This document shows positions 13,240 through 59,065 of a DNA stretch of 64,000 bases, piece by piece. The translations under genes were made by a program, and so were the position numbers. The stretch comes from Escherichia phage KKP 3954, in sequence record OR067838.1. One strand, written 5' to 3'. The number at the start of each line of letters is the position of its first letter. Positions within the stretch are counted from its first letter, which is position 1. The notes under the pieces were generated by a model that was not told where the DNA came from, did no database searches, and worked only from the letters and a program-made list of their open reading frames with translations.

Positions 13240-13365
13240 GATAACCTCGTAGTAATGATAATGCCAAAAGGAAGATGCAAGATCTTCCCATATTGATTAT
13301 TGTAACACATATAGAAACTTCGTGTCAAGGAAAACGAAAATACCCCGCCGAAGCGAGGTATTTTA

Positions 13366-28464: not shown

Positions 28465-28500
28465 TAAAAATAAAAAAGCCCCTAACCTTTCGGAGAGGGG
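28465..28500 (-). terminator. rho-independent terminator
   Basis: GC hairpin followed by a U-tract on the minus strand. Confidence 0.4.
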
Positions 28501-28549
28501 TGTTAAAAATAACAAGGAGGAGGGCCAAAGCCCCAAGAGAGGAGAGGGA

Positions 28550-28846
28550 TTAGATTACGATCTTTTTAGGAACGTCATCTGTATTCTGCACGGCAGGGGT
28601 TTCTTCTTCCATAGCTTCATAATGTTCTTCTAACCATTCTTCTACTTGCTCTTTAATAGCTTTAGCTGCTTGGAAGCGGAGAGGTTTTGCTGCATCCTTA
28701 TCATTAACAAGTTCAACAATATACCGCATAGCTTCTAAATAATGCTCTGCAAATAATTCTTTTACACTTGCTTGCGCCGCATCCATTGCGTAAATCTGTT
28801 GCATTTCGGCTGTTGGTCTTCCACGACCACGTTTTAGTTTAGGCAT
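28550..28846 (-). CDS. small DNA-binding protein, possible terminase small subunit
   Basis: 98 aa with N-terminal KRGRGRP basic motif, acidic C-terminus. Confidence 0.25.
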   Translation of the reverse strand: MPKLKRGRGRPTAEMQQIYAMDAAQASVKELFAEHYLEAMRYIVELVNDKDAAKPLRFQAAKAIKEQVEEWLEEHYEAMEEETPAVQNTDDVPKKIVI

Positions 28847-28914
28847 AATAAAATCCTCCTAAACTTTATCTTAACATATAAAAAATAATAAGTCAAGTTT
28901 TATTCAATAGATAG

Positions 28915-28937
28915 CAAAAAGCCTCCAATAAGGAGGC
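28915..28937 (-). terminator. rho-independent terminator downstream of tRNA cluster
   Basis: GCCTCC-AATAA-GGAGGC hairpin with U-tract on minus strand. Confidence 0.45.
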
Positions 28938-29053
28938 CAATAAATACTGTTAATTTGAAATGCTTTATTATGATTGTGCGTTAAGGAGTCGCACCCCTCC
29001 ATCTTAGAAGGAACCAGGCAAGGTCTTCAAAGATACCGCTGGCAAGCGATATT

Positions 29054-29132
29054 TGGAGGCGGGAATTGGATTTGAACCAATGATCTCCAGCATATGAAAC
29101 TGGCGAGGACGACCAGACTCCTCTATCCCGCT
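29054..29132 (-). tRNA. tRNA-Met (CAU), CCA encoded
   Basis: Manual fold: acceptor AGCGGGA/UCCCGCC, D-stem GAGG/CCUC, anticodon loop UUCAUAU, T-arm AUUGG-UUCAAAU-CCAAU. Confidence 0.6.
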
Positions 29133-29139
29133 ATCATGT

Positions 29140-29208
29140 ATCCCGTGCTGGATTCGAACCAGCGTCACAATAAATTGTGGATCTCTTATCCTGTAAGTCT
29201 AACGGGAA
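29140..29208 (-). ncRNA. tRNA-like RNA with aberrant anticodon arm
   Basis: Canonical T-arm GCUGG-UUCGAAU-CCAGC and 6-bp acceptor, but the middle folds only as CACAA-UUUA-UUGUG; 69 nt. Confidence 0.35.
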
Positions 29209-29210
29209 AC

Positions 29211-29284
29211 TGGTTGTTTCGACAAGAATCGAACTTGTGTCTCACGATTATCAGTCGTGGGTTCTACCATTGAACTACGAAACA
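29211..29284 (-). tRNA. tRNA-Ile (GAU)
   Basis: Perfect 7-bp acceptor, D-arm GUUC/GAAC, anticodon loop CUGAUAA, T-loop UUCGAUU, CCA encoded. Confidence 0.7.
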
Positions 29285-29290
29285 TTTAAT

Positions 29291-29367
29291 TGGTCGGAAT
29301 TGCAGGATTCGAACCTGCGACCCTACGCTCCCAAAGCGTATGCTCTACCAAACTGAGCTAAATTCCG
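29291..29367 (-). tRNA. tRNA-Pro (UGG)
   Basis: 7-bp acceptor, D-arm GCUC/GAGC, anticodon stem UACGC/GCGUA, loop UUUGGGA. Confidence 0.7.
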
Positions 29368-29372
29368 TTATA

Positions 29373-29448
29373 TGGCTGGTCTGTCTGGATTTGAACCAAA
29401 CCTACGACAGTCAAAGTGTCGTGTGCTACCGGACTACACTACAAACCA
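29373..29448 (-). tRNA. tRNA-Gln (UUG)
   Basis: Acceptor with one G-U, anticodon stem CGACA/UGUCG, loop CUUUGAC. Confidence 0.65.
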
Positions 29449-29546
29449 ATAAATCATTTAATGAAGGGCAACCAGAAGAAGTGTGAGAGAAGGAGAAAAC
29501 CATGAGTAAAAGAGAAAGTTTTCTGGCAACCCTTTATTAAATAATT

Positions 29547-29620
29547 TGGAGCGTTCTACGAGGATCGAACTCGTGCCGCCGACTTGGAAGGACGGAATGC
29601 TACCGCTACACCAAGAACGC
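29547..29620 (-). tRNA. tRNA-Gly (UCC)
   Basis: 7-bp acceptor, T-arm ACGAG-UUCGAUC-CUCGU, anticodon loop CUUCCAA. Confidence 0.65.
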
Positions 29621-29933
29621 CCTATATATTTACTATACTACATTTTACTATTTGTTGTCAAGACTTTTATTGATTGGGACAGTGACGAGTATCCCGTTGG
29701 GTGACTAGCCCTACGTTCGGTAAGCTAACTTAAAATAATACAAAACCAAAGTCAAATATTATTCTTCGTTGCTGTCGATGGGAGAGCCGCTTCTCATTTT
29801 GCCCCATCCAACCCTACTCCGGTCAAGTTTCGGGTGACTCTTTTTGTGATCAACACAATACTAAGAACACTGTCTTTCGAGCAGACCTTGTGCACAGGAA
29901 CGACGATCAATCACAATGCTCTTAATGTTGTGT

Positions 29934-30008
29934 TGGTGCTCCCACACTGAATCGAACAGAGATCCACGGATTACAAAACCGTTGTAATAGCCATTATACT
30001 ATAGGAGC
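29934..30008 (-). tRNA. tRNA-Thr (UGU)
   Basis: Acceptor GCUCCUA/UGGGAGC, anticodon loop UUUGUAA; D-stem weak. Confidence 0.5.
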
Positions 30009-30015
30009 AATGCTG

Positions 30016-30091
30016 GGACTCGGCAGGATTCGATACCTGCAATTCCAGAAGCCTATTGGCGACTGGGGGTTTACCTTAACTCTACAAGTCC
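30016..30091 (-). ncRNA. tRNA-like RNA with 8-nt T-loop and no canonical anticodon arm
   Basis: Perfect 7-bp acceptor and T-stem GCAGG/CCUGC with loop UAUCGAAU; interior gives only short tetraloop hairpins. Confidence 0.3.
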
Positions 30092-30098
30092 ATAATTC

Positions 30099-30184
30099 TG
30101 GCGATGAGTATAGGATTCGAACCTATATTGTTCTTTCGAACACGGATTAACAGTCCGCCGCTTAAACCGTTCAGCCAACTCATC
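30099..30184 (-). tRNA. class-II-shaped tRNA with anticodon GUU (Asn anticodon on Ser-like body)
   Basis: 7-bp acceptor, G73, anticodon stem GCGGA/UCCGU, loop CUGUUAA, long variable arm GUUC-GAAA-GAAC. Confidence 0.45.
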
Positions 30185-30190
30185 TTAATT

Positions 30191-30278
30191 TGGTGGTGAG
30201 TGATGGAGTCGAACCACCCGAATCGCAATGATAACAGATTTACAGTCTGCCCCGCTACCCCTACGGAATTAACTCACC
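30191..30278 (-). tRNA. tRNA-Tyr (GUA)
   Basis: 88 nt with long variable arm, anticodon loop CUGUAAA, A73, CCA encoded. Confidence 0.6.
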
Positions 30279-30409
30279 TAAATACTAATATTTAAATTCT
30301 TTTTAAAATAGCCAGTGTTCGCACCACTAACTATGAGTTATCGGTAAGATGGTGGGGGGCTATCTTCCGAAAGTTTACTCTATTAAAGTAAGCTACATTA
30401 AAAAGAACT

Positions 30410-30495
30410 TGGCGGTAGATGTAGGACTCGAACCTACACGCCGTTTCCGACTACAGTTTAGCAAACTGTCGTGGCTACCATTTCACCAATCTACC
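30410..30495 (-). tRNA. tRNA-Ser (GCU)
   Basis: Long variable arm GUCG-GAAA-CGGC, anticodon loop UUGCUAA, G73. Confidence 0.65.
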
Positions 30496-30500
30496 TAATC

Positions 30501-30591
30501 TGGCGGAAGGAGGGAGAGTCGAACTCCCAAGGCTCTTTCAAGCTCGGCGGTTTTCAAGACCGTTTTCGTCGCCACATCGATTTGCCCTTCC
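30501..30591 (-). tRNA. tRNA-Ser (UGA)
   Basis: 91 nt, long variable arm, anticodon loop CUUGAAA, T-arm GGGAG-UUCGACU-CUCCC; position 8 is C. Confidence 0.5.
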
Positions 30592-30825
30592 ATACTTATA
30601 ATCTAACATAAAATAATGATTGTTGTCAATACTTTTTTAAAACATTTTACCATGAATGGTGACTCCACCAACCCCCGTTCTCCACGAACGGTGCTCTTCG
30701 AGCATTTATGTCTTCTAATATAACCGTGGCCTTTGTTTATAATGTCTGACATACTTGCCTCATTCTCTGCCACCATGATCAGTAGTGGGTTCAAATCACT
30801 TGAGCTAATTCATGTTAAAATGTTC

Positions 30826-30900
30826 TGGTGTCTTTACAAGGAATCGAACCTTGACTAAGAGTTTAGAAGACTCCTGTGCTATCCATTACACCATAAAGAC
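30826..30900 (-). tRNA. tRNA-Arg (UCU)
   Basis: Perfect acceptor, D-arm GUGU/GCAC, anticodon loop CUUCUAA. Confidence 0.7.
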
Positions 30901-30902
30901 GT

Positions 30903-30977
30903 TGGTGGCCCTGGCTGGTTTCGATCCAGCTACCTATCGGTTATGAGCCGACAGCTCTCCCATTGAGCTACAGGGCC
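30903..30977 (-). tRNA. tRNA-Met or Ile2 (CAU)
   Basis: Perfect acceptor GGCCCUG/CAGGGCC, D-arm GCUC/GAGC, anticodon loop CUCAUAA. Confidence 0.6.
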
Positions 30978-31224
30978 ATAAATGTGGTAACAGAGACGCT
31001 GACGATTGTAGAGAACCGCTACATTCTCTAAGACCAAGCCCAACTTTCAGCGTAAAAGTTCTTGAGCCGAGACTATTCCTTTTCCTCTTTGGTAGCTAAC
31101 CTCTGAAGAAGTAGTCTCTAACACTATCCGCAGTGCAAGCCCCTCTTAACAAAAGTCAACGACCCTGTTACCACACTTGATGAACGTATCCTAACATATG
31201 AAGGATACGTTTGTCAATAGTTAT

Positions 31225-31539
31225 TTAAGCATATTCTGCTACTTCTTCACTATCTTTCTTTTCCAGAAGAGCAACAACCAAAGCTTCTGCGTTAAAAGTA
31301 TTAATTTCAAGATCCATCTCTCGCATCAGAGCCAAGAAATCAATAACTTTAACATCTTTAGTGATTACAATAGAAGTTGTACCATTGTTTTCAGATGTGT
31401 ATTTTTCTGGATGGAAAAGAAAAACTGCATTGCCGTTACCATCTTCAAACACGTGTTTTTCTAATAGAGACATTGTTCCTCCTAATCTGTTAGTTGTTCG
31501 TCCTCTACCAAGTTTGACACGAGAACGTCTGTTATACAT
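31225..31539 (-). CDS. hypothetical protein
   Basis: ORF with probable true start at internal ATG near 31472 preceded by GGAGGA. Confidence 0.25.
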   Translation of the reverse strand: MYNRRSRVKLGRGRTTNRLGGTMSLLEKHVFEDGNGNAVFLFHPEKYTSENNGTTSIVITKDVKVIDFLALMREMDLEINTFNAEALVVALLEKKDSEEVAEYA

Positions 31540-31733
31540 TGATGCTGATAAACCCTTTCGGGACTATCATCAAAAGCCAAACCTGTGCAAATAGAACAGA
31601 GGTCTGATTCCTTGATGACTCCATTTTTATCACGTCTGGAGTGGTTTGTCAAATGCCTATTACAAGCACGGCACCTAAAATAAAAGCTATTTTGCATATA
31701 TCCTTCGAACCCCAAATGGGGAGTGATCGGCAT
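31482..31733 (-). CDS. zinc-ribbon protein
   Basis: 83 aa with CRACNRH and CSICTG cysteine pairs. Confidence 0.3.
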   Translation of the reverse strand: MPITPHLGFEGYMQNSFYFRCRACNRHLTNHSRRDKNGVIKESDLCSICTGLAFDDSPERVYQHQCITDVLVSNLVEDEQLTD

Positions 31734-31770
31734 CTCCTCACTTCTAGTTTAGCACGAAGGATATCTTAAG

Positions 31771-31956
31771 TCAACTAGGAATAATTTTATCCCTTTTGGT
31801 TTCATAACCAGTCCAATCTAAATCCTCCCAGCCTTCATCATCGTCTAACACATTGTCATCGTCATAAGATGCAATGTTATAAATAGAACGTGGATTACAA
31901 GACATACAATCTTTAATAGGCACATGATGCCATTTGCACGGATTATCACTAATCAT
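31771..31956 (-). CDS. small Cys-rich acidic protein
   Basis: 61 aa, CKWHH and CMSCNP motifs. Confidence 0.25.
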   Translation of the reverse strand: MISDNPCKWHHVPIKDCMSCNPRSIYNIASYDDDNVLDDDEGWEDLDWTGYETKRDKIIPS

Positions 31957-32433
31957 TGCACACCTCCATTCTTGTTAAGATGTTTCATGTATTGTACTTC
32001 ATACTAATCTATAGATCAAGTATTATTTATAATAATTTATTATTTTAATTGATAGAAGTTGATCTATACATACCAGTTCTGATACACTGTACCTGTTTGT
32101 TAGATCTAATAATTATTTATTATTAATATTTAATAATTATTAATCTAATACGAATGACAATATTTGAGTATGAGAGTACTACATCAACAACCTAAAACCT
32201 TAACTCGCTGCGCTCGTTAATAGATTTCTAGGGTAGCATACTTCGAACACAAAAGTCAAGTGTTTTATTAAAATTATTTTCTGTGTGCAAAAACCTTGCT
32301 TAAACAGGTAGCAATAGTATAGCCTATAACATAAGCTTCATAAGAGGCTCGTAGAGCAAGTTTACTTACTAGGTAAGGTGATTTATCATCTTATATATAA
32401 AAAGTGCGTCAGAGACGCGTTTAGGAGGCTAGA
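31957..32433. promoter_or_regulatory. AT-rich divergent control region
   Basis: About 480 bp without ORFs between minus and plus gene blocks; TAATAATTATTTATTATT-type repeats, palindrome GATCTATAGATC, inverted repeat GCGTCAGAGACGC before first RBS. Confidence 0.4.
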
Positions 32434-32757
32434 ATGAGATTTACAAGACAAGAGGTGGTTGTGCTGGACGAAGCAATGACAATGATCGTCTTTTACTATG
32501 AGGATATCTTCTGTGCAGCATATCATTTAAATGACATTCAGATTGAATGGCAGCAGATAGCATTCCTGTTGGACAAGAGTAATCATTTAGATGGCTTTGA
32601 GTATTTGGAGTGGGATGGTGCAAAGGAAGTTAAAATTGTAGGGTTAAATCACGATCAGATTGTTGACATGCAATGTAAGTTGTGTCATTATCAGTTCTCA
32701 AATAAAGTTAAACTCGAAAGGCAACTGGAGGTAGTTAAAGATGATAGCACTAATTAG
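32434..32757 (+). CDS. hypothetical early protein
   Basis: 107-aa ORF with AGGAGG RBS. Confidence 0.3.
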   Translation: MRFTRQEVVVLDEAMTMIVFYYEDIFCAAYHLNDIQIEWQQIAFLLDKSNHLDGFEYLEWDGAKEVKIVGLNHDQIVDMQCKLCHYQFSNKVKLERQLEVVKDDSTN

Positions 32758-32853
32758 TGAGCATCCAATCCTGGCAACAATTGTTCTGATTTTCGCCATT
32801 TGTGTGGTTCACGATGTTCTGGTAAGCTATTTTGACAACAAAGGAGGTAAGAA

Positions 32854-33048
32854 ATGAAAGACGTTATTCAAATGGTATTCCGTGTCACCCTGGATGATAT
32901 TCATGTTGTTAAAGGCACCCAGAACTACACAGAAGCGAAAGAACATTTCCTGGAATGGGTTGAGACGTTGAAGACACAAAACGTTTCCTACAACCGTGTG
33001 ACGCTCACTGGCGACCATACCCCAATCATGGAGTACGTAAAGAAATGA
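32854..33048 (+). CDS. hypothetical early protein
   Basis: 64-aa ORF with RBS. Confidence 0.3.
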   Translation: MKDVIQMVFRVTLDDIHVVKGTQNYTEAKEHFLEWVETLKTQNVSYNRVTLTGDHTPIMEYVKK

Positions 33049-33284
33049 GCAAATATCCAATTACAGGTGTAACCTATTCTTGTGTATCCAAAGGTGGCTT
33101 ATATACGGTCGTGGAATTTCCAAAACCTGCCGGAATATCTAAAGTGTTTGATCCTGTTGTTATCTATGAAGATCTTAGAACAGGTCAACGTTATTGGAGA
33201 TTTGTGAATGACTTTTTAGATCGTATGGAGGTAGTAAGTGGCGAAAACACCGAAGAAGTTATCAAAGCCAAAGAACGTTACTAA
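33045..33284 (+). CDS. hypothetical early protein
   Basis: 79-aa ORF, translationally coupled. Confidence 0.3.
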   Translation: MSKYPITGVTYSCVSKGGLYTVVEFPKPAGISKVFDPVVIYEDLRTGQRYWRFVNDFLDRMEVVSGENTEEVIKAKERY

Positions 33285-33591
33285 GAAACCGAAAAACGAG
33301 GTTCTCAAAGTAGCCAAATCAGTTCCTAAGAAAGATAAATTTGATACGGAGGCATTCGTCTTTGACACACCAATCGAGAAGATTGAAGAAGCGTTGCAAC
33401 GTCTTGAGGAGCAGGAGGCAGATCCAATGGCTGAACCACTCACGGCAGACCAAATTTATTGGTGGGGAATATGGACTTTGCAACTACCAGAAGCAAAAAG
33501 AAGAGGAATGACTTCAGTTCCTACTTGCGCAAAAGAAGCGGCTGTGTTAGGTTTGTATGAGAAATCTAAAAAGAGGAGCAAAAAGAAATGA
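33238..33591 (+). CDS. lysine-rich basic protein, possible nucleic-acid binder
   Basis: 117 aa, Lys-rich at both termini. Confidence 0.3.
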   Translation: MAKTPKKLSKPKNVTKKPKNEVLKVAKSVPKKDKFDTEAFVFDTPIEKIEEALQRLEEQEADPMAEPLTADQIYWWGIWTLQLPEAKRRGMTSVPTCAKEAAVLGLYEKSKKRSKKK

Positions 33592-41403: not shown

Positions 41404-41432
41404 TTGACTTGCGGGATTAGTTATGATATTAT
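41404..41432 (+). promoter_or_regulatory. sigma70-like promoter
   Basis: TTGACT, 17-nt spacer, TATTAT. Confidence 0.45.
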
Positions 41433-41461
41433 GCCTACCTACTTAATGAGGTAGGCTTTTT
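41433..41461 (+). terminator. rho-independent terminator
   Basis: GCCTACCT/AGGTAGGC hairpin plus TTTTT. Confidence 0.45.
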
Positions 41462-41471
41462 AGGAGGCGTT

Positions 41472-46892: not shown

Positions 46893-46920
46893 TTGACTTT
46901 AGTATTAGTTTTAGTATAAT
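46893..46920 (+). promoter_or_regulatory. sigma70-like promoter
   Basis: TTGACT, 16-nt spacer, TATAAT. Confidence 0.5.
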
Positions 46921-46941
46921 ATAGCACAATACTGGGAGGAG

Positions 46942-47385
46942 GTGAGTCCTCCCATTCAAAACGAAGGAGAAAATATGTCATTAGTAAATACTACAACTTG
47001 GGCTACCGTAAGCATGTCTACTGTAATGTCTACCCCTATCTGGAAACTAGAATCAAATAAACACAATGGCAATATCCCACACGAGAAACAAAATGCTGTT
47101 ATTAGAGCGTCGCTTGTAATGCTGGGTATGGCTGAAGATTCACACTATTCTGTTGAGCGTAATGTGAATATCCGAAGCAATAACGATAAGCGAGTAGTGT
47201 TTGCAAATACAACGCTTTTCACTTTCCCTGTTTCACCTAATTGTGGTTTTAAACGAATCTATCAAGAAAATGATATTTTTCATTTTGGTGATGAAGAATT
47301 TACAGGTTGGGGTGCGTCACATATTAAGATGGATGATTTCGGTAACTCTTATGATCCTGCGAAAGCAGATGATACTAATCAATGA
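46942..47385 (+). CDS. hypothetical protein
   Basis: 147-aa ORF with RBS AAGGAG. Confidence 0.3.
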   Translation: MSPPIQNEGENMSLVNTTTWATVSMSTVMSTPIWKLESNKHNGNIPHEKQNAVIRASLVMLGMAEDSHYSVERNVNIRSNNDKRVVFANTTLFTFPVSPNCGFKRIYQENDIFHFGDEEFTGWGASHIKMDDFGNSYDPAKADDTNQ

Positions 47386-58218: not shown

Positions 58219-58572
58219 ATGGTCTGGTGGCAAAAACCTATACTGTTGAAAAAGAAAAAACGTTGGTTTGGCAAAGATGTTTACGAAGTTAATATTTTTG
58301 GTGAACATAAACTAAACCACGATACTCCTGAAAACATGTTAGAAATATTTCTAAGAGATGACAAAATATCTCCTATGGATTACCAACTTTTAAAATTTTA
58401 TGATTCTTCTTTGGCTATTGATAAGTTTGTTGAAGATATTCTGTCTAGAAAAACAGATAAAAACACTTATCCTCTAGAGGCTGATCAAATAGGATTATTA
58501 AACGAGATTTCATCCTTTAAAGAGTTGGATAATATTACAAAAGAGGAGATTTTAGATGGCATTAGATTATGA
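58219..58572 (+). CDS. hypothetical protein; probably starts at ATG 58137 before a frameshift
   Basis: ORF from 58137 (RBS AGGAG) joins this frame at an A6 run near 58250. Confidence 0.3.
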   Translation: MVWWQKPILLKKKKRWFGKDVYEVNIFGEHKLNHDTPENMLEIFLRDDKISPMDYQLLKFYDSSLAIDKFVEDILSRKTDKNTYPLEADQIGLLNEISSFKELDNITKEEILDGIRL

Positions 58573-59065
58573 TCGCCCAACGAGCGATTATTATCCGACA
58601 CCGCAAAAAGCAATCAACAGTTTGTTTAGTGTTATAGATTTCAAAAATCTAAAGGAAGAAGGTTGGGTTTTTGCAGAACCTTGTAGAGGTGAAGCTGAAG
58701 CGATTTATCGCCATTTTCCTGAAGGTTCAGAATATTGTGAACTTGAAGAAGGTAAAGATTATTTTAGTCATGAATGGGAAAATCGTCCCGACATTATAAT
58801 CACAAATCCTCCATTCAAGTTAGCAATGGAGTTCTTGGAAAAGAGCTTAAAAGAGGCGGATGTTTGTATTTATCTTCTTCGGTTGGGCTTCTTGGAGTCA
58901 AAGAAACGACGAGAGTTCCATCAAAAGAATCCACCAACAAACCTTATAGTCCTTTCAGAACGGCCTTCGTTTGTTGCAGGTGGAACAGATAAGACAGCAT
59001 ACGCTTGGTATGTATACGACCCAAAGAATCGTTTGGGCCTCTCTCAACCATTTTATTTTGTTTAA
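58556..59065 (+). CDS. N6-adenine DNA methyltransferase, phage Dam-like
   Basis: DYYPTP and IITNPPF motifs in 169 aa. Confidence 0.55.
   Translation: MALDYDRPTSDYYPTPQKAINSLFSVIDFKNLKEEGWVFAEPCRGEAEAIYRHFPEGSEYCELEEGKDYFSHEWENRPDIIITNPPFKLAMEFLEKSLKEADVCIYLLRLGFLESKKRREFHQKNPPTNLIVLSERPSFVAGGTDKTAYAWYVYDPKNRLGLSQPFYFV

Follow-up and report, generated by a model that had tools for sequence, protein, structure and literature searches.

Predicted divergent sigma-70 promoters, a meltable AT tract and an invariant hairpin between the gene blocks of a phAPEC8-like phage

The gap between the gene blocks

The window studied here is a stretch of 64,000 nucleotides from Escherichia phage KKP 3954 (OR067838.1), a phAPEC8-like Phapecoctavirus, that is, an E. 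coli myophage. Its leftward and rightward genes part at an intergenic gap that a preliminary description had presented as an AT-rich stretch of about 480 bp free of open reading frames (ORFs), and this portrait holds: the gap measures 477 bp (31957-32433), from the start codon at 31956 on the minus strand to the ATG at 32434 on the plus strand, and its A+T content is 70% (61% in the whole window), rising to 82% between 31991 and 32150. Compared with about 60 Phapecoctavirus genomes, the region is 97-98% identical. The features that we recognize in it and at its borders are collected in Table 1.

The leftward block holds small genes, a tRNA cluster (30977-29054) and then the terminase, head and tail genes. 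The rightward block opens with the 107-aa gene and carries early, nucleotide-metabolism and recombination genes, including those for a metallophosphatase, an RNA ligase, a ligase and a ribonucleotide reductase. The proteins that flank the gap show no Pfam domain, and the 107-aa protein, used as a query in IMG/VR, found no homologues. Taken as it was first flagged, the gap looks as expected for a place where the gene blocks of a large virulent coliphage diverge.

Several other identities for the gap were considered and discarded. It contains no credible ORF, only TTG-started ones of 20-30 aa of which none is conserved, so that we do not regard it as a home of small genes; a 19-codon GTG upstream ORF (32378-32437), joined to the ATG of the gene by an ATGA overlap, loses its frame in the phiWec clade. 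A genome terminus, terminal repeat or pac site is likewise rejected, since the ends of the Schickermooser record carry an exact terminal repeat of 329 bp and the gap lies some 54.5 kb (54.5-55.0 kb) from the physical end of the genome. Rfam families searched over 28500-33500 at E up to 1 returned tRNAs and sub-threshold noise only. The "repeat_region" features in GenBank records of relatives are 55-bp automatic marks on the AT tracts.

Table 1. Features of the gap and its borders (window coordinates; numbers between hexamers are spacer lengths in bp; PWM, position-weight score).
Feature	Coordinates	Strand	Remarks
Leftward 61-aa gene	31771-31956	-	phAPEC8_00140 homologue, phrog_26411; first of leftward block
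RBS GGAGGTG of the 61-aa gene	31961-31967	-	Read from sequence
P_L1, TTGATC-17-TACAAT	31991-32019	-	PWM 11.2; predicted start ~31984
Inverted repeat TATAGATCAA (32010-32019) / TTGATCTATA (32059-32068)	32010-32068		Arms are the -35 boxes of P_L1 and P_R1
P_R1, TTGATC-18-tgaTACACT, extended -10	32059-32088	+	PWM 11.2; predicted start ~32095
AT tract 2	32100-32149		Imperfect 17-18-bp inverted repeat; starts with perfect palindrome TTAGATCTAA (32100-32109)
Variable spacer	32150-32194		29% variable sites in 8 Phapecoctavirus genomes; absent in phiWec clade
Invariant element	32195-32229	-	No variable site in 8 genomes; 91% identical to phiWec clade
P_L2, TTGACT-18-tgcTACCCT, extended -10	32230-32259	-	PWM 11.5; predicted start ~32223
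AT tract 3, G/C-free at 32263-32280	32260-32295		Upstream of P_L2 -35 box; common to P_R2 remnant
P_R2 remnant, TTGCTT-16-TATAGC, poor match	32296-32323	+	Compared with phiWec-clade site
P_R3, TTTACT-17-TATCAT, weaker, gene-proximal	32361-32389	+	9/12 consensus positions, PWM 8.1; predicted start ~32396
Leader hairpin GCGTC-AGA-GACGC	32406-32418	+	4 nt upstream of AGGAGG
RBS AGGAGG (32423-32428) and rightward 107-aa gene (32434-32757)	32423-32757	+	phAPEC8_00139 homologue, phrog_14390

Predicted promoters and their conservation

Judging from its sequence, the gap is mainly an ordinary divergent sigma-70 promoter region of a phAPEC8-like phage with predicted starts, a reading to which we assign a probability of about 0.75. 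The bidirectional early promoters that the preliminary description had proposed are thus upheld as far as letters can tell: three strong sigma-70-type matches, two leftward and one rightward, face the flanking genes, with -35 and -10 hexamers that stand 17-18 bp apart and are commoner than chance. A position-weight scan covering both strands of the window places P_L1, P_R1 and P_L2 among its 34 best positions out of about 128,000. Three hits scoring at least 11 fall within the 477-bp gap; in 1000 dinucleotide shuffles of the local sequence the mean number of such hits was 0.13, and no shuffle gave as many as three. In the 25 nt that precede the 36-nt promoter core, the A+T content is 96% for P_L1, 96% for P_R1 and 80% for P_L2, and these tracts look UP-element-like. 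The best promoters elsewhere in the window have the same form (TTGACA-N15-TGnTAnnnT), are co-oriented with the genes and often follow A+T-rich DNA.

P_L1 and P_R1 stand back to back, and their TTGATC boxes are the two arms of an inverted repeat that is more meaningful than the 10-bp palindrome ATCTATAGAT (32007-32016) also present there; the upstream spacer that both promoters share is AT tract 1 (32020-32058, 90% A+T). The spacer of P_R3 contains GGTAAGGTGATT (32372-32383), which is conserved in Phapecoctavirus, in the phiWec clade and in Justusliebigvirus VEcB. The firing of these sites and its timing are inferred from sequence matches, statistics and conservation. Host sigma-70 RNA polymerase would start at about 31984 and 32223 on the minus strand and at about 32095 and 32396 on the plus strand, with AT tracts 1 and 3 acting as upstream UP-element-like tracts, as before other strong promoters of the phage; the rightward starts would serve the early genes, and the leftward ones the small genes, the tRNAs and the structural genes. 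The first rightward mRNA would carry a 5'-leader hairpin, GCGTC-AGA-GACGC. This is the inverted repeat GCGTCAGAGACGC that had been noticed before the first early RBS and that we find in place, with a 5-bp stem and a 3-nt loop. The 41 nt that hold it (32396-32436) fold at -8.7 kcal/mol (z = -2.4), and it is kept in the phiWec clade, where in one genome a C-to-T substitution still permits a G-U pair. A terminator scan calls the same hairpin on the minus strand only, where no gene needs one.

In the literature that we searched, no study mapping Phapecoctavirus transcripts or 5' ends was found, and the authors of the ASO2A genome annotated nine promoters genome-wide with none in the gap. The present coordinates are offered as exact positions for the main predicted early promoters in a genus whose phages are often included in therapy cocktails. 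Related designs are known. The rV5-like phages are described as relying on sigma-70 promoters, many with an extended -10 or UP element, and bidirectional promoters were expected or found at their divergent junctions (PMC3606486, PMC7344957). Like rV5 (genes 10/11; Kropinski et al. 2013, PMC3606486) and Certrevirus CB7 (PMC7344957), our phage is a large virulent myophage without an RNA polymerase of its own, and as in these phages host-type promoters (TTGACA/TATAAT) sit where gene blocks diverge, many of them having an A-rich stretch upstream or an extended -10. It differs from them in several ways: it belongs to another subfamily, Stephanstirmvirinae, its gap lacks sequence homology to their regions, and it has two tandem leftward promoters, one of which is faced by a rightward promoter. 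The rV5 junction next to the RNA ligase, ATPase and Sir2 genes, which also occur in the rightward block of the window, measures only about 100 bp and yielded no promoters.

Comparison with relatives separates the parts of the gap. Over the left-gene 5' UTR, P_L1, the first two AT tracts and the P_R2 remnant, the phiWec clade is only 41-55% identical to the window, and over the variable spacer the figure drops to 9%. The clade nevertheless retains P_L1, P_R1 and P_L2 in unchanged order and orientation, with altered boxes and spacers and scores of 10.0-13.1, the equivalents of the first two reading TTGACT-18-tgtTAGAGT and TTGATC-18-tgtTACTAT. The equivalent of P_R2 (TTGTGT-16-tgcTATAGT, score 9.4) is the predicted driver of an extra 70-aa gene that the window lacks. 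The boxes of P_L2 are identical in every relative, and its spacer is identical in the eight Phapecoctavirus genomes and different in the phiWec clade; boxes that stay fixed while the spacer differs are the pattern expected of a promoter. The -10 hexamer of P_L2, TACCCT, is a poor one, and its perfect conservation could have a cause other than promoter function. The whole of 32195-32259 has no variable site among the eight genomes, and it is this conserved part that the earlier reading overlooked. Some records depart from the scheme: in BI-EHEC a 2-bp insertion gives P_R1 a 20-bp spacer, P_R1 is missing from the nieznany record, and the -10 box of P_L1 is lacking in EP57. Faulty assembly may explain such departures, or else single promoters may be dispensable.

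What is odd for simple promoters is that P_R1 and P_L2 converge, with predicted starts about 128 bp apart and no intrinsic terminator between them. Such a face-to-face pair might be a transcriptional-interference or antisense switch that sets the balance or timing of leftward expression (tRNA and small genes) versus rightward expression (early genes), and we regard this as quite unlikely. Both promoters are strong and conserved in two clades, and where their transcripts overlap, for about 128 nt, the two RNAs would be fully complementary; both promoters are nonetheless predictions, the spacing of their -10 boxes varies between clades (142 vs 104 bp), P_R1 is disrupted or absent in two records, and virulent phages are not known to require a bistable switch. 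In 186 and P2 two promoters do fire face to face over a short overlap (186 pR/pL), but those phages are temperate and the pair consists of lysis-lysogeny promoters with repressors, whereas ours is virulent and without a known regulator.

Other transcription signals were tried and dropped. As a phage-specific non-sigma-70 promoter motif, k-mer counts over 35 intergenic gaps yielded TTGACAAA only, and GAGGTAAGGTGATT, considered as a repeated motif, exists as a single copy. The T4 late promoter TATAAATA has one copy, uninformative within a pure A+T tract and lost in the phiWec clade, where a T4 MotA-box-like TTGCTTAA-N12-TAGTAT (32296) is not conserved either. A boxA-like GCTCGTTAA on the plus strand is unsupported because other copies are scattered through the coding DNA of these genomes.

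AT tracts, repeats and GATC sites

The two least stable 40-bp duplexes of the 64 kb lie in the gap, at 32107-32147 (dG -34.2) and 32010-32050 (-36.6), against a mean of -51.3 and a standard deviation of 3.3. The former falls in AT tract 2, which also contains the longest G/C-free run of the window (32107-32144, 38 bp) and which is located between the converging P_R1 and P_L2. AT tract 2 lies upstream of no predicted promoter, and the promoter model therefore leaves it unexplained; it is a candidate DNA-unwinding element.

The repeats and palindromes that had first drawn attention fare unevenly. The AT direct repeats are present as TAATAATTTATTATT (32030-32044) and TAATAATTATTTATTATT (32107-32124), but the 38-nt pair from which they come (32007-32044 and 32104-32141) is only 71% identical, which is low-complexity similarity and weak alone. 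The supposed perfect 12-bp palindrome GATCTATAGATC has no hit in the window: one base had been misread, and the actual sequence at 32006-32017 is AATCTATAGATC. The 12-mer is carried by several relatives (nepoznato, anhysbys, BI-EHEC and ETEC-TG).

One may ask whether, beyond one promoter per direction, these repeats and palindromes are anything other than slippage products of low-complexity A+T-rich DNA. The modest identity of the direct repeats, the slipping of tract length among relatives (an expansion in BI-EHEC, a 3-bp deletion in phAPEC8) and the loss of AT tract 2 from the phiWec clade all agree with that explanation, to which we give very little credence all the same: substitutions in AT tract 2 are few (4 of its 50 sites vary among Phapecoctavirus genomes, against 29% in the neighbouring spacer), the hairpin fold of the tract has a z of -3.35 relative to dinucleotide shuffles, and 32195-32259 does not vary at all.

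GATC is locally in excess, with three sites in 93 bp where 0.22 are expected from the local composition (P = 0.0014), and the palindromes that contain it (ATCTATAGAT, TTGATCTATA, TTAGATCTAA and the related TTAATCTAA) might be operators for a regulator of phage or host origin, or Dam/SeqA-sensitive sites through which the methylation state would influence promoter activity. The sites occur at matching places in the phiWec clade despite changed surroundings, the AT-rich intergenic region of PVP-SE1 has four [AT]GATCT sites, and the window has 15 copies of WAGATCTW where 6.9 +/- 2.4 are expected, several of them touching predicted promoters at 13279, 32101, 43197 and 54965; TTAGATCTAA itself would cover about +6 to +15 of P_R1. 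Against this, two of the three GATCs are part of TTGATC -35 boxes, no regulator has been identified and the flanking proteins lack Pfam domains, and the only methyltransferase seen in the window has no assigned specificity. Nor is GATC depleted or clustered window-wide: 269 copies are observed for 217-291 expected and eight other 100-bp windows hold at least three, which is not significant, so that clustering on this scale was rejected. We consider an operator or methylation role very doubtful.

The invariant hairpin and the question of an origin

The element that directly follows P_L2 holds a hairpin core at 32200-32220, which on the minus strand reads TTAACGAGC-GCA-GCGAGTTAA, that is, TTAAC-GA-GC-GCA-GC-GA-GTTAA, and which begins 2-6 nt past the predicted P_L2 start. 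By standard energy rules it is weak (-4 to -5 kcal/mol, z = -0.3). As a minus-strand terminator it would combine this weak stem with a following GGUUUUAGG, and the terminator scan does not call it. Its apex, GCGCAGC at 32207-32213, fits the mini-hairpin GC-GNA-GC.

The hairpin belongs to a widespread, cross-phylum family that seems not to have been described. Its cap has a triloop of the form GNA and tandem G.A pairs, and its outer stem covaries freely. Members have an identical 19-nt core, and where the loop was left free in a search of viral contigs it was G-N-A in 11 of 20 hits against 6% expected. The apex recurs with covarying stems after tRNA genes in bacteria of many phyla, including Alphaproteobacteria, candidate phyla radiation (CPR) bacteria, Bacteroidota and others, and one member sits within a permuted tmRNA gene. 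The family is also present in divergent intergenic regions of unrelated phages, in one case 20 nt after a consensus promoter, and we find no homology between our phage and the other viral contigs that carry it. Neither the window nor about 80 kb of relatives contains additional copies, and the invariant element has no match in E. coli chromosomes. No protein gene recurs beside the bacterial hairpins; judged by eye, their neighbours are housekeeping-like (ClpB-like, HisRS-like). In the literature searched, the core 13-mer appears only in papers printing vector or primer sequences. Membership in a known RNA family was rejected, Rfam being empty for the gap and giving no match over the hairpin in 38 bacterial loci, as was ToxI or pseudo-ToxI, which share AGGTGATTT with the phage element: Rfam again gave no hit, and the locus in PhiTE lies elsewhere.

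A 14-mer at the hairpin apex, ACTCGCTGCGCTCG, is identical to ColE1/pBR322 sequence beside a DnaA box downstream of ori, and it may lie within the mapped PriA site of ColE1. The closing stem there is GAC/GTC instead of AAC/GTT, which, read from the sequences, is a compensated change. The flanks are unrelated, so that only 14 nt are common to the phage and the ColE1/pBR322 n' (PriA) region, and the phage hairpin differs in having no DnaA box nearby. In ColE1 the n' primosome assembly site is described as "close to" the origin-proximal DnaA box (PMC3640518). The GCGNAGC mini-hairpin is in turn reported from the primase origins of G4, St-1 and alpha3, from RSF1010 ssiA and from the N4 hairpin promoters (PMC13037366, PMC3201870). 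As described by Hirao and co-workers (GCGNAGC or GCGNNAGC; PMC13037366), this "extraordinarily stable mini-hairpin DNA" is 7-8 nt long, whereas the phage version, GC-GCA-GC on the minus strand, caps a longer hairpin that also contains tandem G.A pairs and an AAC/GTT stem. Folded as DNA with standard parameters, the minus-strand hairpin reaches -3.4 kcal/mol, a value to be read knowing that these parameters do not capture mini-hairpins (PMC13037366).

Could the gap then be a transcription-activated origin of replication, besides or instead of a promoter region? RNA from P_L2, P_R1 or both would invade AT tract 2 to form an R-loop, and the displaced minus strand would fold the GC-GCA-GC mini-hairpin. 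We see this as possible but improbable. Its anatomy has precedents: T4 oriF and oriG have a middle promoter, a downstream DNA-unwinding element and an R-loop primer, and the T7 primary origin has promoters followed by an AT-rich stretch. Here too an extremely A+T-rich, meltable tract, the least stable DNA of the 64 kb, lies within about 10-120 nt downstream of promoters, in this case of both converging ones. The likeness is one of anatomy only, since unlike in T4 and T7 the promoters are plain sigma-70 ones, two of them converge on the tract, and the tract is lost in the sister clade. The divergent intergenic region of PVP-SE1, in which two leftward promoters flank an AT-rich GATC cluster and iteron-like repeats, adds a parallel. 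The cumulative GC skew does reach its minimum at about 32 kb, but the gene-strand switch fully accounts for it, and because the two coincide it brings no independent information; in rV5, too, skew changes merely track gene orientation and were put down to it (PMC3606486). Looking in the gap for features of the oriC, lambda or P1 type, we found one DnaA box with one mismatch, no exact IHF site, no GATCTnTTnTTTT 13-mer with GATC within two mismatches, and no iterons, its tandem repeats being A+T low complexity only; the phiX174 F-G site resembles the hairpin over at most 6 nt. Initiator boxes are thus wanting, the phiWec clade has not kept AT tract 2, and the same hairpin family follows chromosomal tRNA genes beside housekeeping genes. 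The origin reading stays alive because of the promoter and downstream-tract anatomy and of the hairpin with its ColE1 14-mer. A more specific version would have the undescribed class AAC-GA-GC-GNA-GC-GA-GUU mark an origin together with the palindrome of AT tract 2 and the converging promoters, the hairpin on the displaced strand loading a primosome or helicase by analogy with the primosome assembly site beside the ColE1 origin; we hold it to be unlikely. Even so, its promoters, the least stable DNA of the 64 kb and a ColE1-like mini-hairpin make the gap the best candidate that sequence offers for the origin, as yet unmapped, of this phage group.

A divergent promoter region remains our preferred reading, and within it the hairpin may act as RNA, as its orientation follows transcription; a role of this kind, inferred like every RNA-level role here, also fits its location beside tRNA and housekeeping genes better than an origin role does. 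It would stand at the extreme 5' end of the P_L2 transcript, most likely as a very stable end-protecting or attenuating stem-loop. Should the family have a specific function, be it RNA end protection or single-strand DNA priming, it would constitute a new and widespread cis element. Hairpins also lie directly downstream of several strong promoters of the window, where 40-mers fold at a mean of -6.2 kcal/mol against a background of -4.75 (one-sided P = 0.04).

Probable divergent promoters in the gap

The gap between the leftward and rightward genes (31957-32433, 477 bp) contains no credible ORF and is AT-rich, as had been described, with 70% A+T overall and 82% over 31991-32150. Of all 40-bp segments in the window, the two with the lowest duplex stability are found here (32107-32147 and 32010-32050, about 5 sd under the mean), as is the window's longest run without G or C (32107-32144).

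A sigma-70 weight matrix was run over both strands of the window; it scored both hexamers, allowed spacers of 15-19 bp and rewarded an extended -10. The top matches belong to one clear family, TTGACA-N15-TGnTAnnnT, whose orientation follows that of the genes and whose upstream DNA is often A+T-rich. Three matches scoring at least 11 lie in the gap, versus 0.13 expected from local dinucleotide shuffles, and three were reached in none of 1000 shuffles. The predicted sites point both ways, in agreement with the bidirectional promoters proposed in the preliminary description. From these statistics, the orientation of the sites and, above all, the preservation of function where the sequence itself has diverged, we infer with a probability of roughly three in four that the gap is a divergent promoter region, which is an ordinary kind of element.

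Predicted promoters and other elements of the gap
Feature	Position	Orientation	Sequence or organization	Remarks
P_L1	32019-31991	leftward	TTGATC-17-TACAAT	
AT tract 1	32020-32058			
P_R1	32059-32088	rightward	TTGATC-18-tgaTACACT	predicted start ~32095
AT tract 2	32100-32149		imperfect inverted repeat opening with perfect palindrome TTAGATCTAA	
Invariant block	32195-32229; core 32200-32220	minus strand	TTAAC-GA-GC-GCA-GC-GA-GTTAA	
P_L2	32259-32230	leftward	TTGACT-18-tgcTACCCT	predicted start ~32223
AT tract 3	32260-32295			
P_R2	32296-32323			degraded remnant
P_R3	32361-32389	rightward	TTTACT-17-TATCAT	weaker; directly before first rightward gene

AT tract 1 is the upstream spacer common to the predicted P_L1 and P_R1, and AT tract 3 is likewise upstream of the predicted P_L2. 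The palindrome reported earlier is explained by this arrangement, since TATAGATCAA and TTGATCTATA are the -35 boxes of the back-to-back P_L1 and P_R1. Its perfect 12-bp form, GATCTATAGATC, is absent from the window: the sequence there is AATCTATAGATC, within which a 10-bp palindrome remains (32007-32016), and the 12-mer GATCTATAGATC does occur in several relatives. The AT direct repeats are present, but only as a 71%-identical low-complexity pair, and the inverted repeat GCGTCAGAGACGC lies at 32406-32418, where it had been placed. The earlier view of the gap was largely right in spirit, with one base misread.

The promoter model leaves unexplained the convergence of P_R1 and P_L2, between which no terminator was called, and the two elements that separate them, AT tract 2 and the invariant block. 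A switch acting by interference would be compatible with the divergent promoters, and we consider it quite unlikely. AT tract 2 folds as RNA at -9.8 kcal/mol (z = -3.35); it is nearly invariant in the genus (4 of 50 sites variable) and missing from the phiWec clade.

An operator or Dam-dependent function of GATC sites, equally compatible with divergent promoters, appears very unlikely. The palindrome WAGATCTW occurs 15 times in the window versus 6.9 +/- 2.4 in shuffles (15 reached in 0 of 100), for example at 13279, 32101, 43197, 49152 and 54965, and four or five of these lie at or just past a predicted strong promoter. The window also encodes a predicted DNA methyltransferase of 169 aa (58556-59065, plus strand; phrog_799, E = 3e-59, NPPF motif), which bears on whether the phage methylates its GATC sites. 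Separately, the sequence directly past several of the strongest predicted promoters (25444-25400 and 13299-13260 on the minus strand, 46920-46960 and 41432-41470 on the plus strand) folds into stable hairpins, at -8 to -18 kcal/mol; in some cases a U run comes next, followed by an RBS. These sites look like promoter and 5' stem-loop modules.

Genome setting and comparison with relatives

Genes to the left of the gap all point leftward: three small ones, a cluster of 10-12 for tRNAs (30977-29054) and, beyond these, those for terminase, head and tail. Genes to the right all point rightward, with many small ones followed by those for metallophosphatase, RNA ligase, DNA ligase, exonucleases and ribonucleotide reductase. 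The sign of the GC skew flips at ~32 kb, which is uninformative because the coding strand switches at exactly the same place; the change in rV5 was likewise read by its authors as following the coding strand (PMC3606486). We ruled out that the gap is a genome end: the terminal repeat of Schickermooser is 328 bp (PMC6563267), an exact 329-bp repeat is found at both ends of its record, and the equivalent of the gap lies away from it, at 54.5-55.0 kb.

In the tRNA cluster, ARAGORN called 10 genes, and Rfam added a tRNA (30194-30278, 39 bits) and, below its threshold, a tRNA-like match (30505-30591); relatives have tRNA-Tyr and tRNA-Ser(TGA) annotated at these positions. Directly left of the cluster, a sub-threshold RyhB-like match (28913-28967, minus strand; 27.5 bits versus a gathering score of 55, E = 0.05) is probably noise.

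Over 31000-33500, the window shares 97-98% identity with about 60 Escherichia phages of the phAPEC8-like genus Phapecoctavirus (Stephanstirmvirinae), such as ESCO25, Schickermooser and ASO2A. Across eight genomes of the genus, variable sites amount to 29% in 32150-32194 and 20% in 32297-32360, with none in 32195-32259. Diverged relatives at this locus were limited to one IMG/VR contig and phages like phiWec179/188, for which their authors propose a distinct genus (PMC12695924). Identity to phiWec188 drops to 9% over the variable spacer and is 41-55% over P_L1, AT tracts 1 and 2, the P_R2 remnant and the 5' UTR of the left gene. The clade nevertheless retains P_L1, P_R1 and P_L2 in unchanged order, with altered hexamers and spacers and scores of 10.0-13.1. 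It has a fourth promoter, P_R2, which drives an additional 70-aa gene (L005/L006:2659-2871, loci of the phiWec clade); of this promoter the window keeps only the degraded remnant. An RBS-like remnant, TAAGAGGCT, is also seen at 32341 (compare TAGGAGGCT at 32422), and together they point to a gene loss or gain at 32296-32400.

Three records count against the promoter reading: the P_R1 spacer of BI-EHEC carries an insertion of 2 bp, nieznany lacks P_R1 (its record begins inside the gap and misses the equivalent of 32028-32089), and EP57 lacks the P_L1 -10 box (the equivalent of ~31970-32007 is missing). These anomalies may be assembly faults in AT-rich DNA; assemblies seem to break or lose sequence at the AT tracts.

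The only gap sequence common to Phapecoctavirus, the phiWec clade and Justusliebigvirus VEcB (L015:2600-2625) is GGTAAGGTGATT (32372-32383), present once in the window, in the predicted P_R3 spacer upstream of the first rightward gene. In the distantly related Salmonella phage PVP-SE1, a divergent gap between gp098 and gp099 (L016:2419-2764) adjoins a block of transposase-like-protein genes that starts ~0.8 kb right of the gap in our window. It holds two leftward and one rightward predicted promoters, four [AT]GATCT sites within 80 bp of A+T-rich DNA, a duplicated CTAATTATTCCCAA and 2.5 tandem copies of CAGTTGGGT, and overall looks more origin-like than the window's region.

The element is unannotated in the GenBank records examined, and is described neither in the promoter passages of Phapecoctavirus papers (including PMC12695924) nor in the rV5 (PMC3606486) and CB7 (PMC7344957) papers. 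Its interest lies in a precise predicted promoter map, a candidate origin and an unexplained hairpin family.

The invariant hairpin

The invariant core begins 2-6 nt past the predicted P_L2 start and is weak by standard energy rules. Exact copies of its 19-mer, AACTCGCTGCGCTCGTTAA, were found in 48 metagenome contigs and in 26 species-representative genomes, where chance predicts 4-7 matches per collection and a handful of matches resemble coding DNA; only three carriers are phage relatives. In 41 of 63 distinct sequences, these three included, 6 or more of 10 further pairs extend the hairpin outward, with stems that vary case by case. When 36 sequences chosen for having a stem were aligned, paired cells made up 85.7% versus 64.9% when shuffled, and the covariation score is 0.47 versus 0.12 (slid controls at most 0.13). 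Judged by sequence comparison, the element is a member of a wide hairpin family with covarying stems. Rfam holds no model for it, and in the literature searched the core 13-mer appeared only within printed vector or primer sequences. A covariance model found one copy in the window and zero in ~80 kb of related genomes.

Hosts include Alphaproteobacteria, candidate phyla radiation (CPR) lineages, Bacteroidota, Ignavibacteria, the PVC group and Lachnospiraceae, among others. No protein gene co-travels with the hairpin, whose neighbours resemble housekeeping genes by eye. Sixteen copies lie 6-180 nt downstream of tRNA genes and none upstream, the strand with the G-N-A triloop being the tRNA sense strand in 13 of the 16; another lies within an enlarged permuted tmRNA gene. 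When the three loop bases were left free in an IMG/VR search, G-N-A was found on the same strand in 11 of 20 matches versus 6% expected (GCA, GGA, GTA and GAA). In unrelated viral contigs, which have no protein in common with the window, the element is again in divergent intergenic regions, with the G-N-A strand that of the downstream genes; one contig (L097) has A+T-rich DNA upstream of it, and in one it lies 20 nt past a perfect TTGACA-16-TATAAT, beside a second GCGTAGC.

The hairpin could act as RNA: a highly stable stem-loop right at the 5' terminus of the P_L2 transcript, and in bacteria at the 3' end of tRNA transcripts, would protect the end or attenuate transcription. The link between its orientation and transcription argues for this, as do the housekeeping contexts of the bacterial hairpins. 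Hairpins also directly follow some other strong promoters of the phage, a weak effect (P = 0.04). Alternatively, it could act as ss-DNA, on the strand displaced by P_L2 transcription and beside the region's most meltable DNA, where it would serve an origin for loading or priming. The literature on mini-hairpins and an identity to ColE1 argue for this. Neither DnaA boxes nor IHF sites, 13-mers or iterons were found in the gap. An origin function, itself compatible with divergent promoters, seems unlikely.

GCGNAGC is known as an "extraordinarily stable mini-hairpin DNA", reported from the primase-dependent origins of G4, St-1 and alpha3, from RSF1010 ssiA and from N4 hairpin promoters (PMC13037366; PMC3201870), and its stability is not predicted by standard parameters according to a review (PMC13037366). 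The 14-mer ACTCGCTGCGCTCG (32203-32216) is identical in ColE1, pBR322 and pUC, ~55 nt from a DnaA box downstream of ori, whereas the closing stem is GAC/GTC in ColE1 and AAC/GTT in the phage. Over 600 plasmids matched a ColE1-type 116-mer query at 99% identity or above, with 116/116 identity in the five matches listed. The 14-mer probably lies within the mapped PriA site. In ColE1, the n' primosome assembly site is described as close to the DnaA box and exposed on the displaced strand (PMC3640518; PMC3167613; PMC8246471).
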